A stretch of DNA of 51,217 nt, from the NCBI GenBank assembly GCA_964520545.1, contig CAZFOD010000001.1, forward strand, positions 4,752 to 55,968, given 5' to 3'. The translations under genes and the position numbers were made by a program. This DNA comes from an uncultured Candidatus Saccharibacteria bacterium (GTDB taxonomy: Bacteria; Patescibacteriota; Minisyncoccia; Phycocordibacterales; CAIZLB01). Every line of letters starts with the position of its first letter. Within the stretch, counting starts at the first letter, position 1. Below, piece by piece: positions 4,907 to 51,217 of the stretch. Below the pieces are notes generated by a model that saw nothing but the letters and a program-made list of their open reading frames with translations, was not told where the DNA came from and searched no databases.

Positions 4907-6097
4907 TTATCGTATTTTCAGTTTTATAAACCGCCTCTTACCAACCTTTACAACAATTTCCTCATTAACCTCAAAGTTAAAATCAGACACCTTCTCTCCT
5001 CCAACAACTGATACACCCCCTTCTTTTACAAGACGCTTAAATTCACCAATCGATTCAATAACAGCTGCATCAAGAAGTGCTTTTGAAAGAAGGGTTCCTC
5101 CTGCAATTGAGGATTCAGGAATTTCTGTTGGAACATCTCCTTTAGAAAAAGCATTCACAAAAGATTCCTCGGCGGTATCCGCAGCGGTTTTACCGTGATA
5201 GAAAGTAACAATTCTTTTTGCGAGATCAACTTTTATATCCCGTGGATTTTTTGAGGCGTCAGCAAGTTGTTCAGAAATGTTAGCAAGTTCTTTTTCATTC
5301 ACATCTGTGCAAAGTTCAAATCCTGGAATTATCATTCCATCAGTCCAGCTCATTATTTTTCCAAACATATCTTGTGCAGAGTCAGACAAAGAAACCATAT
5401 TACCTTCTGTTTTTCCCATCTTCTTACCAGTCGCATCTGCCAAGAGCTTCATTGTAATAGCTGCCTTTTCTTTGTTCAGAAGTTTCTTTTCCAAATCTCT
5501 ACCCACGAGCATATTAAACATTTGATCGTTTCCACCGATTTCTACATCTACTTCGAGAGCCACACTGTCATACCCTTGGAGCAAGGGATACATAAATTCG
5601 TGAATGGATATTGGCTTACCTTCTGCTGTTCGTTTTGCAAACATGTCACGCTTAAGCATTTGATCAACCGTCATGAGCGATGACAGATGGAGAATTTCTT
5701 TCAAACCCATTTTCTTAAGCCAGGTTGAGTTGTATACAATCTTTGCACCACCCCAAGAGAAGTTGAGAAACTTCGATGCCTGCTTTTTGTACACCTTCAT
5801 ATTTTTTACCACCTCTGCTTCAGAAAGCACCTTTCGTGTATCCGACTTGTCTGTTGGATCTCCGATTAGTGCAGTAAAGTCACCAATGAGAAGTATCACC
5901 TCGTGACCAAGCTTCTGAAACTCAGCAAGTTTCTTGAGCACAATTGCATGACCTATGTGTAGTGTTGGGCCCGTTGGATCTATGCCCGCATAAACTCTAA
6001 GTCTCTTTTGTTTTGAGATTTGTGAATTTAAAAAATCAACCGATGGTATGACCTGCTCCACCCCGCGGGTAAACAATGAGGAGTTGTGACTATTCAT
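4907..6097 (-). CDS. tyrS: tyrosine--tRNA ligase (bacterial type)
   Basis: GIDPTGPTLHIGH, YPLLQGYD, GGNDQ, KMGKT, C-terminal S4-like domain. Confidence 0.96.
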   Translation of the reverse strand: MNSHNSSLFTRGVEQVIPSVDFLNSQISKQKRLRVYAGIDPTGPTLHIGHAIVLKKLAEFQKLGHEVILLIGDFTALIGDPTDKSDTRKVLSEAEVVKNMKVYKKQASKFLNFSWGGAKIVYNSTWLKKMGLKEILHLSSLMTVDQMLKRDMFAKRTAEGKPISIHEFMYPLLQGYDSVALEVDVEIGGNDQMFNMLVGRDLEKKLLNKEKAAITMKLLADATGKKMGKTEGNMVSLSDSAQDMFGKIMSWTDGMIIPGFELCTDVNEKELANISEQLADASKNPRDIKVDLAKRIVTFYHGKTAADTAEESFVNAFSKGDVPTEIPESSIAGGTLLSKALLDAAVIESIGEFKRLVKEGGVSVVGGEKVSDFNFEVNEEIVVKVGKRRFIKLKIR

Positions 6098-45280: not shown

Positions 45281-46813
45281 TTACCGAGCGAATTCAATTG
45301 CGCGGAGTTCTCGTACAACATTCACTTTGATTTCTCCTGGGTAGCGAAGGTCTTCCTGGATACGATTAGCTATATTTCTAGCCATATTTTTAGCCTCGAG
45401 GTCTGTTACTTTCTCTGGGAAAACGAATACTCGAACCTCTCGTCCTGCTTGGAGGGCGTAGGACTTATCTACCCCAGGGAAGGAGTTAGCTATTTGTTCG
45501 AGCTCAGCAAGGCGCTTGAGGTAGTTTTCAATACTATCCTTTCTGGCGCCAGGGCGTCCTCCTGAAATTGCGTCCGCAGTCTGAACAATCCTTGATTCAA
45601 GAGTTTCATAAGGATATTCCTCATGATGAGCCTGCATTGCCTTAATAATCTCTTGGCTTGCACCGAATTTTTCAAGTATTCTACGACCAATTTCAACATG
45701 AGTCCCTGTTACTTCATGATCTACTGCCTTTCCGATGTCATGGAGAAGTGCACCGGCTTTTGCAACTCCAATGTTGGCACCAAGCTCTTCTGCAATCATT
45801 CCTGCGATGTGAGCACACTCGATTGAGTGTTGGAGTACATTCTGTCCATAACTTGTTCGATAGTGAAGTCGTCCTAGGATAGCTACGATTCGAGGATCAA
45901 GTTGGAGTACACCTGTTTCGTAAACAGCCTGCTCTCCTTTTTCTTTGATTACCTTATTAACTTCTTCTTTTGCACGTTCAACTTCTTTTTCAATCTTTGC
46001 AGGTTGGATGCGACCATCTGCGATGAGTGCTTCAAGTGCCATACGTGCAATCTGTCTTCGAATTGGATCGAAGCATGAAATAGTTATTGCTCCAGGAGTA
46101 TCATCTACAACTACTTCTACACCAGTCTCACGTTCAAACGCTTTAATGTTTCTTCCTTCTTTGCCGATAATTTTTCCTTTTACTTCATCAGAGGTAATAG
46201 CGACATGTGTTGTGAACATGTCAGATGAAACAGAACTCGCAAGGCGTTGAATTGTCGTAGTAAGTATTTCTTTCGCACGAGATTCAAGCTTTTCTTCTGA
46301 GAATGTTTCAAGTTTATGCATTCGTTCAAGAAGATCTTTTTCTCCATTTGTTTCAATCTTTTTAACCAACTCTTCTTTTGCTTGTTCTCTTGAGAGGGAA
46401 GCGATACGTTCTAATTCTTTCTGTAGTGTTTCAGCAGAAGCATCAATCTTCTCCTTGATAGTCTTAATTTCAGCTATGCGGCTTTTTACATCCTCTACAT
46501 CCTTGTCGATTTCACCTTGTCTCTTGTCTAGAAAATCTTCTTTCTTAATAACGCGATCCTCTGCTTTTTTTATTGTTTCTTCTCTCACTTTCATTTCCTC
46601 ACGAGCTGATTTGAGAGTTTCAGCTGCTTTCTCTTCTGCCTCGAGGGTTATCTGCTTAGCTTTCTCGTTTGCATTCACCATCATCTCTTTGATGTTGAGC
46701 TCTATAGAGCCTTTTTTTCCAAGTGCAACAAGTATGCGGAGCACATATCCAAACGCGAGACCAATGCTCCCCATGAATGCTGCGATGAGGAGGACGGTTT
46801 GTAATGGAATCAT
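45281..46813 (-). CDS. rny: ribonuclease Y
   Basis: N-terminal TM, coiled coil, KH (KGKIIGKEGRNI), HD (LLHDIGKA), RTSYGQNVL. Confidence 0.96.
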   Translation of the reverse strand: MIPLQTVLLIAAFMGSIGLAFGYVLRILVALGKKGSIELNIKEMMVNANEKAKQITLEAEEKAAETLKSAREEMKVREETIKKAEDRVIKKEDFLDKRQGEIDKDVEDVKSRIAEIKTIKEKIDASAETLQKELERIASLSREQAKEELVKKIETNGEKDLLERMHKLETFSEEKLESRAKEILTTTIQRLASSVSSDMFTTHVAITSDEVKGKIIGKEGRNIKAFERETGVEVVVDDTPGAITISCFDPIRRQIARMALEALIADGRIQPAKIEKEVERAKEEVNKVIKEKGEQAVYETGVLQLDPRIVAILGRLHYRTSYGQNVLQHSIECAHIAGMIAEELGANIGVAKAGALLHDIGKAVDHEVTGTHVEIGRRILEKFGASQEIIKAMQAHHEEYPYETLESRIVQTADAISGGRPGARKDSIENYLKRLAELEQIANSFPGVDKSYALQAGREVRVFVFPEKVTDLEAKNMARNIANRIQEDLRYPGEIKVNVVRELRAIEFAR

Positions 46814-49431: not shown

Positions 49432-49475
49432 AAAAAAGGGCCCCGGATCGTCATGCGACGGTCCGGGGCTTTTTT
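49432..49475. terminator. bidirectional terminator
   Basis: A6-gg-GCCCCGGATCGTC-atgc-GACGGTCCGGGGC-T6. Confidence 0.85.
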
Positions 49476-49869
49476 GATTGCAACGCGGCCAGACAAGATT
49501 GGCAAGGCAGCGTCGAATGCTATTTTGGTGAGAAGTCCCATTCCGCCACATGCTGAGCAGGGGGCGAATGACTTTCCACTGATGACAAACGCGATTGGTC
49601 CTTTGACCTTCGCAATACTAACTTATTCAGTCGCCCATGGTGTGGGTTCCTTTCGGTTTGGTTTCTTTACTGCACAACTTCCTTCCAGAATGCGTCGGCT
49701 AAACTTTGGTGCTTGGCACCGCCCTCTAGCCCTATGATCAGGCTTGAGGGCGGTGCTTTCGCTCCCGCAGATCAGTCGATCATAGACACCTCCTGGTTGG
49801 TTGTTGTTTCGGTCCTAGTCATTTCAAGGAAAGCTGGTTTTGACACCGACTCTCCATAACTGACCTCTG
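49432..49869 (-). ncRNA. candidate 440-nt structured RNA carrying two 3-codon minigenes
   Basis: bounded by promoter 49904-49876 and terminator 49432-49475; 5' hairpin; 11-bp stem 49716-49756; no credible long ORF. Confidence 0.55.
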
Positions 49870-49875
49870 CAGGCT

Positions 49876-49904
49876 ATGATAGCAGATATCGGCTATTCTG
49901 TCAA
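49876..49904 (-). promoter_or_regulatory. sigma70 promoter TTGACA-N17-TATCAT
   Basis: tgtcaa 49899-49904 and atgata 49876-49881 on the + strand. Confidence 0.7.
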
Positions 49905-50142
49905 GCAAAAGTGACAATACCTGTAATATAGCTATATTTATCAACGTAAAAACCTTATTTATGGGCTTCTAGTGCACCATCAGCACGTTTTTTAGCATTT
50001 ACGTAATATTTTTATTACAAAACTATCTTTATTTATGTCAATTAACAGTCGGTTAAGTTGAACACGTTTTACATACTGCATCGGTTTTAGCCCTTAATAT
50101 AAGGGTTTCTCTGTTTTACGAAATAGAAAATGTCAAAACGGC

Positions 50143-50170
50143 TTGACAAAATATTGAAAATGCATATAAT
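50143..50170 (+). promoter_or_regulatory. consensus sigma70 promoter TTGACA-N16-TATAAT
   Basis: both hexamers are perfect. Confidence 0.75.
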
Positions 50171-50290
50171 ATCCAACAGATAGTTTGAAATAGCAAGTTT
50201 GCTTCCATCTGAATCACTTATGAATAGGTGGCTCTGACGGGAGCAAAACGTTCCTAAAACAAAAAACAACCAACCTAGAAAGGAGTAAAT

Positions 50291-50338
50291 ATGACCTACA
50301 CCGTCAACAAGCGCGGCGAAGTTATCGTCCTGAAATAG
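50291..50338 (+). CDS. 15-aa micro-ORF MTYTVNKRGEVIVLK
   Basis: SD GAAAGGAG 5 nt upstream of ATG, after an A/C-rich unstructured tract. Confidence 0.45.
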   Translation: MTYTVNKRGEVIVLK

Positions 50339-50341
50339 GAC

Positions 50342-50486
50342 ACTCTGCGAAAGCAGAGTTTGGAAGTCTGTCATGATCCTTTGGCAAAGATCGTGAACGT
50401 CACAGGTAACATGTGAGCCAAGAGGAAGCAGAGCCTCCGAGTTAAAGCACTCAGACAAAAGCTTGGTGGGTACACAAGTATCCACC
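50342..50486 (+). ncRNA. multibranch structured RNA domain upstream of the ribozyme
   Basis: ACTCTGC-GAAA-GCAGAGT; GTCTG/CAGAC closing four hairpins; GGTGGGTAC-acaa-GTATCCACC. Confidence 0.5.
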
Positions 50487-50488
50487 TC

Positions 50489-50536
50489 CTGTCCACGAAT
50501 GTAATTCGTGCTGATGAGTCCAAAAGGACGAAACAG
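50489..50536 (+). ncRNA. type III hammerhead ribozyme
   Basis: CTGTC|CACGAA-tgtaa-TTCGTG-CTGATGA-GTCC-aaaa-GGAC-GAAA-CAG: full core, three stems, GUC cleavage triplet (cut after 50493). Confidence 0.92.
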
Positions 50537-50538
50537 AA

Positions 50539-50658
50539 ATCTTTACATGGTTCCCTTCACCTCATCCCGCGCTTCGTTTTTACGTCGCGGACATCAACCA
50601 CTCAAATAATATAGTGGTCCCCGCAGGCGCTGGGTGAGGTGAAGGGAATATGGAAGAT
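50539..50658 (+). ncRNA. rod-like structured RNA, Y-RNA candidate or anti-SD leader
   Basis: 17-bp stem 50551-50567/50632-50648 with nested GCGCTT/AGGCGC, GCGG/CCGC, ACCACT/AGTGGT; upstream of TROVE gene. Confidence 0.5.
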
Positions 50659-50699
50659 CTGATCTTTAAATACTTATCTCATAAATATCAAAAAGTTTC

Positions 50700-50767
50700 G
50701 GTTCGGTTTCGGCAGATAGATATTGCTTTAATTAATGAAGGCAATGTTTATCTGTCGAAATTGAATC
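50700..50767 (+). other. 30-bp uninterrupted RNA hairpin with 7 G.U pairs
   Basis: 50700-50729 pairs with 50738-50767, 8-nt loop. Confidence 0.8.
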
Positions 50768-50844
50768 CAATTCTTGGAGCTACCGCCATTGCGGAGTGTG
50801 GTGGGTCACTTCTGATCCATCCTTCAAACCTACAGAGAGAACCT

Positions 50845-51217
50845 ATGAAAAACCTTCAAACGATTCTTGCCGCAGGCCGCAGTGTTCGCGTTAGCAGCAG
50901 TCAGGTGACGAACCGCGCTGGGGCACCAGCGTTCCGCCGCTCCTTACAAGAGCAGGTGGTCCAGGTCCTCTCGACCGGCACGCTCAGTGACACTTTCTAC
51001 GCCACGCGAGAGGAACTCGCGAAGGAGGCGTTGCAAGTGCTCATCGAAGCGCGCGACACGATTCCGTCTTTCTTGGCGCGCGCCCTTGTGTGGGCACGCG
51101 AAGAAGGGCTGATGAAGTCGCTGCCGGTCTTGGGACTTGTCGTGTTGTCGTCCGCGGGGGCTCGCACACGCGAGCTCTTCGAGAACGCCTTTCCGCGCGT
51201 GGTGAAAACTCCTGATG
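50845..51217 (+). CDS. TROVE-domain (Ro60/Rsr-like) RNA-binding protein, 3'-truncated; missed by ORF track
   Basis: MKNLQ...TNRAGAPAF...LSTGTLSDTFYAT...PSFLARALVWAREEGLMKSLP...FPRVVKTPD matches the TROVE N-terminus pattern; alternative in-frame ATG at 50650. Confidence 0.8.
   Translation, partial: MKNLQTILAAGRSVRVSSSQVTNRAGAPAFRRSLQEQVVQVLSTGTLSDTFYATREELAKEALQVLIEARDTIPSFLARALVWAREEGLMKSLPVLGLVVLSSAGARTRELFENAFPRVVKTPD

Follow-up and report, generated by a model that had tools for sequence, protein, structure and literature searches.

Why should a self-cleaving RNA stand in front of the gene for the RNA-binding protein Ro60? The question is raised by the right end of a 51,217-nucleotide (nt) stretch of DNA from an uncultured Candidatus Saccharibacteria bacterium (assembly GCA_964520545.1, contig CAZFOD010000001.1), which we call the window (G000:C1:4752-55968). 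There, a first-pass annotation made from the sequence had placed a hammerhead ribozyme and several structured RNAs ahead of a TROVE-like open reading frame (ORF). The genome comprises 709,428 bases on 12 contigs and is 97.84% complete; 19 kb across the window's right end form locus L004 (G000:C1:53000-72000; window coordinate = L004 coordinate + 48,248). Sequence motifs, covariation, synteny, phylogenetic clustering and gene content form the basis of the answer that we think rather probable: the locus is a horizontally acquired Ro60 cassette, in which type III hammerheads act in cis as processing or insulating elements at the starts of units, as an inherited accessory that the cassette does not require.

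The complete ORF, read past position 51217, carries both a TROVE domain (PF05731, 52.4 bits, cut-off 23) and a vWA_Ro60 domain (PF25045, 39.6 bits, cut-off 27.7), and is thus a true Ro60 gene (rsr), as the first-pass annotation had supposed from its 5' part. The gene runs 2,029 bases past the window end, and the 124 amino acids (aa) encoded inside the window gave no Pfam match, the fragment being too short. Ro60 aligns end to end with Rsr of Deinococcus radiodurans, the closest solved structure (2NVO; residues 18-507 against 12-501, E = 6.2e-26), and matches phrog_850, 'RNA-binding protein' (E = 4.3e-42). Twenty-three other Ro60 loci (L009-L031) were taken from three collections by protein similarity: two from genome contigs (58% in Candidatus Doudnabacteria, 57% in Candidatus Uhrbacteria), 20 from metagenome contigs, some of them short (39-68%), and one from a viral contig (38%). 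With near-duplicates merged (L011=L012=L013, L019=L020, L021=L022, L023=L026=L030), they represent 17 other lineages, or 18 counting this genome; all lineage counts depend on this merging. The Ro60 frame of L025 (1211-2889) translated with six stops, for which a frameshift, a broken gene or a coordinate error is possible.

Between promoter and rsr lies the hammerhead that the first-pass annotation had described, here called HH1. Its catalytic core (CUGAUGAG...CGAAAC) is complete and its cleavage triplet is GUC; the predicted cut falls between 50493 and 50494, after this GUC and before a C. HH1 is one of four hammerheads within 3.7 kb, all on the rsr strand (Table 1). HH1, HH2 and HH3 are the only Rfam hammerhead matches in the whole genome (E = 7.8e-9 in the genome-wide scan). 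They share CUGAUGAG...CGAAA with triplets GUC, GUC and CUC, and score 43.7, 42.7 and 38.9 bits, values that are low because the short loop 2 departs from the family consensus; at Rfam gathering thresholds, 4 tRNAs are the only matches in the window. The fourth copy, HH4, was found by R2, a hammerhead model built from natural copies at Ro60 loci; its stem I is longer, and CCGAUGAG replaces CUGAUGAG in its core. For HH4, HH2 and HH3, the predicted cuts fall after L004 4478, 5380 and 5862, respectively. HH1 and HH2, which lie 3,135 nt apart, have identical stem III strands (CUGUC / GAAACAGAA) and are 82% identical along 50 nt. Each of the four hammerheads is followed by a unit of its own: in order, the rod, hairpin and rsr; a 0.9-kb non-coding stretch that holds two paralogous units; a 90-codon hydrophobic ORF; and a DnaJ-domain gene. 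A vestigial hammerhead considered between the two paralogous units (L004 4918-4937) was rejected at 3-4.5 bits with filters off.

A structure alignment of 7 natural hammerhead copies from four lineages, in which stems I and II are closed and stem III is open, shows how the fold has been kept. Pairing is seen in 96.2% of its cells, whereas sliding the 3' partner lowers this to 33-47%. Changes on both sides were found for 13 of the 15 pairs; all three stems contain compensatory changes, and the core is intact. The two invariant pairs are columns 7-50 (U-A, next to the cut) and 35-46 (G-C, which opens stem II), and beyond the core the UGU of loop 1 and two A's of loop 2 do not vary. Such a pattern of invariant and covarying positions would be expected from selection for a fast-cleaving fold.

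Next, we consider the related loci. A descriptor script and R2 found hammerheads in 7 of the 18 Ro60 lineages: this genome, L018, L019/20, L021/22, L023/26/30, L024 and L029. Those of the six other lineages (out of 17) are of the same build and lie on the Ro60 strand, with a 6-bp stem I, loop UGUR and a 4-bp stem II; four minus-strand R2 matches, all at E >= 0.06, were treated as noise. The same searches found none in L009-L017, L025, L027, L028 and L031, Rfam found none in L009 and L010 at E <= 0.1, and no other ribozyme family reached threshold in 16 loci. The positions recur as well: a hammerhead lies upstream of Ro60 in this genome, L018, L019, L024 and L029, 49-143 nt before a structured module (described below) in this genome, L018, L019 and L029, and 225-306 nt after the Ro60 stop codon in this genome, L019, L024 and L023. 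On the Ro60 tree, which leaves out L029 (Ro60 cut by the contig end) and has the six stops of L025 entered as X, the hammerhead trait is explained by 2 changes, where shuffled labels require ~6. The clades that carry it are (own,(L019,L024)) with support 85/84, (L023,(L021,L022)) with 100/99, and L018 alone, and the poorly supported backbone would be compatible with one hammerhead origin.

Further details of these loci are noted here. In L021 the hammerhead lies 33 nt before an ORF, and in two lineages the one downstream of Ro60 precedes a small hydrophobic ORF (L004 5454-5726; L030 ~1081-1263), the peptides of which have no detectable similarity. In L014 (~1115-1135), the sequence found ahead of the L029 hammerhead (AACTTTGACAATTTACC; L029 ~1990-2010) is kept, with a plain hairpin and no ribozyme after it, which hints at loss or replacement of the hammerhead.

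The second recurrent element is a structured module marked by the word GAGGACUGC-N5-GAGGNUACUUC, of which each locus has one to three copies, always on the Ro60 strand. The two copies in this genome lie downstream of rsr, past the window end; in most relatives the module is upstream. Helix 1 (CCUUAnnnn / nnnnUGAGG) is followed by a U-rich internal loop and by helix 2 (GUCC / GGAC), which covaries to GCCC/GGGC and GUUC/GAAC. An asymmetric loop (5' NNUGAC, 3' (N)A) leads from helix 2 to a hairpin that varies in length, and the 3' tail reads NUACUUC. The asymmetric loop presumably resembles a kink-turn, and no L7Ae-type protein, the binder of kink-turns, was found in the genome. A 12-20 bp flank stem encloses the module in L011, L014, L015, L017 and L018, and is not clear in our two copies. 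A covariance model of the module (R1), seeded with Infernal from four compact copies and with matches counted at E <= 1, gave 33 matches, all 33 on the Ro60 strand and beside Ro60. Together with the 3'-strand word, it places the module in 15 of 18 lineages, the exceptions being the three most distant Ro60s (L027, L028 and L031). In the module alignment, which was fitted to the model and so favours the structure, 91.2% of cells pair against 32-53% when slid, and both sides change in 91 cells, the shuffles giving 27.7 +/- 5.8.

As for a bacterial Y RNA, the module is encoded within ~4 kb of Ro60 and on the same strand. Y RNAs are described as having a long stem in which the 5' and 3' ends pair, with a Ro60-contact motif GGUCCGA / GNCGAA(N)G, in the available part of Chen et al. 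2014 (PMC4201824); by eye, the 5' strand of the module, UUUGUCC(G)A, resembles this motif. ARAGORN found 0 tRNA-like genes in L004 1-9000, and L004 4240-6045 gave no tRNA, YrlA or Y_RNA match in Rfam at E <= 10. The module is thus Y-RNA-like rather than YrlA-like, and is the best candidate for the Y RNA of this clade, a role in which it would bind Ro60. A 124-nt tRNA-model match just upstream of a distant Ro60 (41% identity; L027 406-529) may be a tRNA-like Y RNA of the YrlA type, unlike the module of the closer clade.

In 8 loci the Ro60 stop codon is immediately followed by a third element, a structured RNA of 129-245 nt. It has three conserved blocks (UCCCAGUCUGACUGCGCG, AUAAAAGACCGAAACC and GAUAAAUUAAUGGGA), and its closing stem covaries by eye (CCCA/UGGG, CCCAC/GUGGG, CCUU/AAGG, CCUC/GAGG). 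In this genome, L019 and L024 it is followed by a hammerhead.

Is the locus native to this lineage? Its guanine-cytosine (GC) content is 0.45-0.61 across L004 1200-8500, compared with ~0.39 in the flanks, and the search for Ro60 gave 0 hits among 60 relatives (same genus, family and order) and 0 among 150 more genomes of the phylum. Based on these two observations, the locus is best read as a horizontally acquired island. The cassette core common to most relatives is a TrmB-type regulator, divergent promoters with a palindromic word over the -35 element, one to three modules, rsr and, often, the structured RNA after the rsr stop codon. In two lineages transfer-messenger RNA genes lie 1-1.4 kb downstream of Ro60 (L010 8046-8472; L011 8680-9032) and may mark an island insertion site. 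Within the high-GC island, L004 6041-8484 holds the DnaJ-domain gene, with a product of 97 aa, and three ORFs (138, 239 and 311 aa), which have no significant match in Pfam, PADLOC or PHROGs. By tblastn, none of these downstream ORFs, the DnaJ-like one included, has a counterpart in the other Ro60 loci. No integrase, transposase or prophage gene was found among 9 proteins of the locus with Pfam or 7 with PHROGs, the three ORFs staying unnamed, and PADLOC gave no defence-system match for Ro60 or the unnamed ORFs.

The first-pass annotation had also proposed a link to RNA repair through RtcB, and here it found no support, because neither RtcB, RtcA nor PNPase was found. RtcB (PF01139) and RtcA (PF01137) had 0 matches in the 97.84%-complete genome, and the same profiles match 10 and 5, respectively, of 14 named control genomes. 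The best match to PNPase (TIGR03591) reached 60.3 bits, with the S1/KH end alone and a cut-off of 525. A 512-codon frame at ~46013-46210 on the minus strand (G000:C1:50764-50961) has a KH/S1-like stretch that scores 18.9 bits with the PNPase profile.

To the left, the Ro60/hammerhead region adjoins the gene of a TrmB-type regulator (Table 1), the AlphaFold model of which (predicted local distance difference test score 88) matches TrmBL2 and TrmB over the full length. Such a regulator was found by tblastn in 10 of the 23 other Ro60 loci (identities: L029 64%, L024 49%, L009 41%, L021/L022 37%, and L017/L010/L015/L019 28-32%); nine of these matches span most of its length, and that in L014 is a 55-residue end piece alone. 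The consensus promoter of the first-pass annotation was confirmed as a perfect TTGACA-16-TATAAT, the sole perfect one among 11 promoter-like sites in 7.8 kb (7.0 +/- 2.6 sites in shuffles). Its -35 element is overlapped by the inverted repeat TGTCA-N8-TGACA, and this promoter word, as TGTYAAAA-N3-CTTGACAAA and with 0-3 substitutions, recurs upstream of the module/Ro60 region in L009, L014, L020, L021, L022, L024 and L029. Repeat and regulator form a candidate repressor-operator pair that is conserved with the Ro60 cassette. As another shared operator word, GTTTTAC/GTAAAAC was discarded, being without enrichment at the corresponding place in the other loci.

On the minus strand, the second structured RNA that had been proposed is in agreement with a promoter, a significant fold and a terminator (Table 1), and would be transcribed divergently. 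L014, L020 and L024 have divergent partner promoters as well, and the RNAs behind them share with ours AGGAGGUG followed by a 3-codon ORF, a second Shine-Dalgarno (SD) sequence with a 3-4-codon ORF, and a terminator. The four RNAs align weakly (50 of 576 columns identical), and that of the window has no blastn homologue in the other loci at E <= 0.01 and no Rfam match at E <= 10. The possibility that it is a paralogue of the post-Ro60 RNA was rejected: an nhmmer profile matches the 8 known copies of the latter and none in the window at E <= 10.

The first-pass annotation had further listed a leader with a micro-ORF and a multibranch domain, a rod-like RNA and a 30-bp helix between promoter and rsr, and had seen Ro-bound RNAs here. 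The rod and the long helix stand, as none of 200 shuffles folds equally well. The leader, of 317 nt, folds better than its shuffles, and the multibranch domain itself is a prediction of the minimum free energy (MFE) fold. The micro-ORF is present as sequence; small ORFs in other leaders are unlike it in length and sequence, so that its conservation was rejected. With blastn at E <= 0.01, the leader, the rod and the hairpin have no counterpart in the other Ro60 loci, and the rod has no match to R1; the only Rfam matches of the hairpin are chance ones to miRNA precursors, far under the gathering scores. As Ro ligands these three elements are thus unsupported; the conserved candidates for Ro60 RNAs are found past the window end, downstream of rsr. 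RNase III is present in the genome and could cut the rod and the long hairpin. From the promoter to rsr there is no terminator-like site.

Table 1. Positions of the features of the Ro60 locus and its surroundings, in window coordinates unless a locus is named.
Feature	Position	Strand	Remarks
TrmB-family transcription regulator, 250 aa	48676..49428	+	Pfam TrmB helix-turn-helix, E = 1.2e-15
Bidirectional intrinsic terminator hairpin, ends regulator gene (+) and divergent RNA (-)	49434..49475	.	GC-rich hairpin between A run and T run; closed in MFE fold
Divergent structured RNA, ~436 nt	49434..49869	-	z = -4.79, 0/100 shuffles as good; terminator at 49475-49434
Mini-ORFs of divergent RNA, three codons, each after SD	AUGAUCGACUGA 49783-49772; AUGGGCGACUGA 49638-49627	-	
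Promoter of divergent RNA, TTGACA-17-TATCAT with TG	49876..49904	-	11/12 consensus
Inverted repeat TGTCA-N8-TGACA over -35 of operon promoter; candidate operator	50131-50148	+	
Operon promoter TTGACA-16-TATAAT	50143-50170	+	12/12 consensus
Leader RNA, predicted to be released by HH1	50177..50493	+	z = -4.11, 0/100 shuffles
Leader micro-ORF, 15 codons	50291-50338	+	after AAAGGAG
HH1, type III hammerhead	50486..50539 (L004 2238-2291)	+	RF00008 43.7 bits, E = 8.9e-8; R2 73.8 bits
Rod-like hairpin, stem ~27 bp, abuts HH1	50539..50658	+	z = -6.70, 0/200 shuffles
Hairpin of 29-30 bp	50701..50766	+	z = -5.97, 0/200 shuffles
rsr (Ro60, 549 aa), 5' part in window	50845..51217 (whole gene L004 2597-4246)	+	TROVE and vWA_Ro60
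Post-Ro60 RNA	L004 4326-4450; L009 6645-6771; L014 3676-3927; L017 7723-7920		
Post-Ro60 RNA	L018 3171-3409; L019 3773-3959; L024 7632-7852; L025 2932-3127		
HH4	L004 4471-4537	+	R2 28.1 bits
Modules of this genome	L004 4586-4686; 5025-5115	+	
HH2	L004 5373-5426	+	
HH3	L004 5855-5908	+	

How might these parts work together? In the reading that we prefer, the TrmB-type protein would control the divergent promoter pair, and a plus-strand transcript would run from the leader through rsr and the 3' RNA to the modules and past them. The hammerheads would cut this long transcript at the head of each unit into five pieces: the 317-nt leader, the rsr mRNA with its 3' RNA (~2.2 kb), a 0.9-kb RNA with two modules, a 0.48-kb RNA with the small ORF, and the DnaJ-like block. 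Hammerhead cleavage gives 5'-hydroxyl and 2',3'-cyclic phosphate ends. Each piece would accordingly have a 5'-hydroxyl and a ribozyme body at its start and a 2',3'-cyclic phosphate at its end. With such cutting, the non-coding RNAs would no longer share the fate of the mRNA, and the modules, perhaps with the 3' RNA, would be ligands of Ro60.

Several observations count against this reading. Internal promoters are possible, and weak 9/12 sites exist. Every hammerhead copy that Rfam matched is under the gathering threshold (38.9-43.7 against 48.5 bits), and the core varies: HH4 and the L029 copy (2011-2065) have CCGAUGAG for CUGAUGAG, and in one L024 copy (5769-5823; GAC...GAAU) the 15.1-16.1 pair next to the cut is inverted. 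Such core changes lower the activity of hammerheads. Moreover, 11 of the 18 lineages, with modules or Ro60 present, have no hammerhead, which is why we take the ribozymes to be an accessory and not a necessity. Finally, R2 detects the same subfamily in 17 of 150 other genomes of the phylum, at 19 sites (L032-L050), where it fronts unrelated genes; none of the 19 has a module or Ro60 within 1.5 kb. A same-strand frame of at least 90 codons starts within ~120 nt downstream of 11 of these 19 sites, and ten downstream frames that were scanned comprise a histidine kinase, NusA, a periplasmic binding protein, a zinc-ribbon membrane protein and six without a Pfam match. As the same subfamily precedes unrelated genes, this suggests that it is a general unit-start element for processing of 5' untranslated regions (UTRs), and its link with Ro60 may be a matter of history only. 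Hammerheads are still strongly enriched at Ro60 loci, with 8 copies in ~134 kb of other distinct loci compared with 19 in ~120 Mb (150 genomes, estimated from rounded sizes), a ~300-fold figure that is rough, R2 having been trained on Ro60-locus copies and the filters of the genome scan being stricter. The pairing of hammerhead and Ro60 in the first-pass annotation thus holds in part: other lineages share it and cluster on the Ro60 tree, and it is neither general among Ro60 loci nor confined to them.

A bolder claim gives the ribozymes a share in the making of the Ro60 ribonucleoprotein: in ultra-small bacteria without PNPase and Rtc, self-cleavage would free the new Y-like RNAs and the rsr 3' RNA, and the ends would protect them or mark them for Ro60. 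If true, the cassette would be a self-contained RNA-protein module that carries its own processing activity on transfer; we regard this as doubtful. Stated as dedicated maturation, where cleavage is required to make the Ro60-bound RNAs, the 5'-hydroxyl and 2',3'-cyclic phosphate ends stabilise Y-like RNAs or are read by Ro60, and the ribozymes stand in for protein RNases in a reduced genome, we consider it unlikely. It would explain why four lineages have a hammerhead shortly upstream of a module and three have one after the post-Ro60 RNA, and it agrees with a link that is kept across Ro60 divergence down to 53-63% identity and with a genome in which PNPase, RtcA and RtcB were not found. However, 8 of the 11 hammerhead-free lineages keep their modules, so that cleavage is not generally required. 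Furthermore, a type III cut leaves the ribozyme body on the 5' side of the module, the subfamily serves unrelated genes, and HH1 is followed by non-conserved hairpins instead of a module.

Alternatively, the hammerheads may belong to a mobile or phage-derived element that was inserted beside Ro60 and has no role in the cassette. The foreign GC content of the island would fit this, as would the match of Ro60 to a phage protein family and the DnaJ-like and three unnamed ORFs that other Ro60 loci do not have in common; clustered hammerheads are, moreover, typical of prophage transcripts in the available text of Perreault et al. 2011 (PMC3088659). A passenger would, however, hardly be expected to keep positions syntenic to Ro60 and modules across diverged lineages. 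With no integrase or transposase among the 9 proteins scanned, and with short chance-like pairs as the only repeats besides hammerheads and modules, we find this improbable.

Could the cut ends be rejoined, by RtcB or by self-ligation of the ribozymes, in a repair circuit or as a circular or spliced RNA? The 3,135-nt unit from HH1 to HH2 is a candidate circle, as the identical stem III strands would rebuild a hammerhead at its junction. Circles were raised as a possibility for clustered hammerheads by Perreault et al. 2011 (PMC3088659), who, in the part available, report detecting no such products. Since HH4 sits inside the unit and the 97.84%-complete genome has no RtcB or RtcA match, other RNA ligase families lying outside that search, we give this little credence. 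That the hammerheads are inactive relics or chance matches, as scores under the gathering threshold and two kinds of core variant might suggest, is the least credible of all in view of the genome-wide E value, the compensatory changes in all three stems, the intact core of 7 aligned copies and the conserved loop nucleotides.

In a full-text literature search, to which the supplementary tables of Chen et al. 2014 and Perreault et al. 2011 did not belong, no paper linked a hammerhead or self-cleaving RNA with Ro60, Y RNA, TROVE, Rsr or RtcB, and no description of Ro60 RNAs or hammerheads in Patescibacteria or the Candidate Phyla Radiation was found. The pairing is thus new relative to that literature, and the same supplementary tables may list such loci. 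The hammerheads described here recur in a defined and conserved context together with an RNA-binding protein. The locus also yields three candidate RNA families without an Rfam match, namely the covariation-supported module, the 3' RNA after rsr and the divergent RNA with mini-ORFs, as well as a conserved regulator and promoter. That Ro60 persists without PNPase or Rtc points to other partners. To our knowledge, few bacterial hammerheads have been given a biological role, and we know of natural Ro60 ligands in only a minority of bacteria. As the whole system is smaller than 6 kb, it could be moved to a model host.

Engineered insulators of the RiboJ type place a hammerhead and then a hairpin in the 5' UTR, which removes the upstream context. 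HH1 likewise stands directly before a long hairpin, but is natural, and its 27-bp hairpin may instead be a site for RNase III. With the Deinococcus RYPER complex (Ro60-Y RNA-PNPase) the cassette shares a full-length Ro60 orthologue, whereas PNPase, the known effector there, was not found here. Clustered hammerheads flank varying genes in bacterial and prophage polycistronic transcripts, TROVE being unmentioned in the available text of Perreault et al. 2011 (PMC3088659). As in those clusters, several hammerheads share a strand over a few kb, with single genes or short blocks between them, and the role proposed there, cutting into unit-length RNAs, is the same. Unlike them, as far as that text goes, the units here are the Ro60 gene and its candidate partner RNAs, in a context that recurs across lineages where gene identities there are not constant; no prophage genes were seen, and all copies are of type III with a common loop 1 (UGUR). 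The rsr-yrlBA-rtcBA locus of Salmonella, in the accessible portions of Chen et al. 2014 (PMC4201824) and PMC7790460, differs from ours in its tRNA-like domain, in RtcB and RtcA, which were not found here, in having RtcR where our locus has a TrmB-type regulator, and in the ribozymes that are present here. In both, however, non-coding RNAs in 1-3 copies are encoded no more than a few kb from Ro60, share its strand and are probably transcribed together with it, and by eye the 5'-strand motif of our module, UUGUCC(G)A, resembles the Ro60-contact motif of YrlA-type Y RNAs as given in the available part of PMC4201824.

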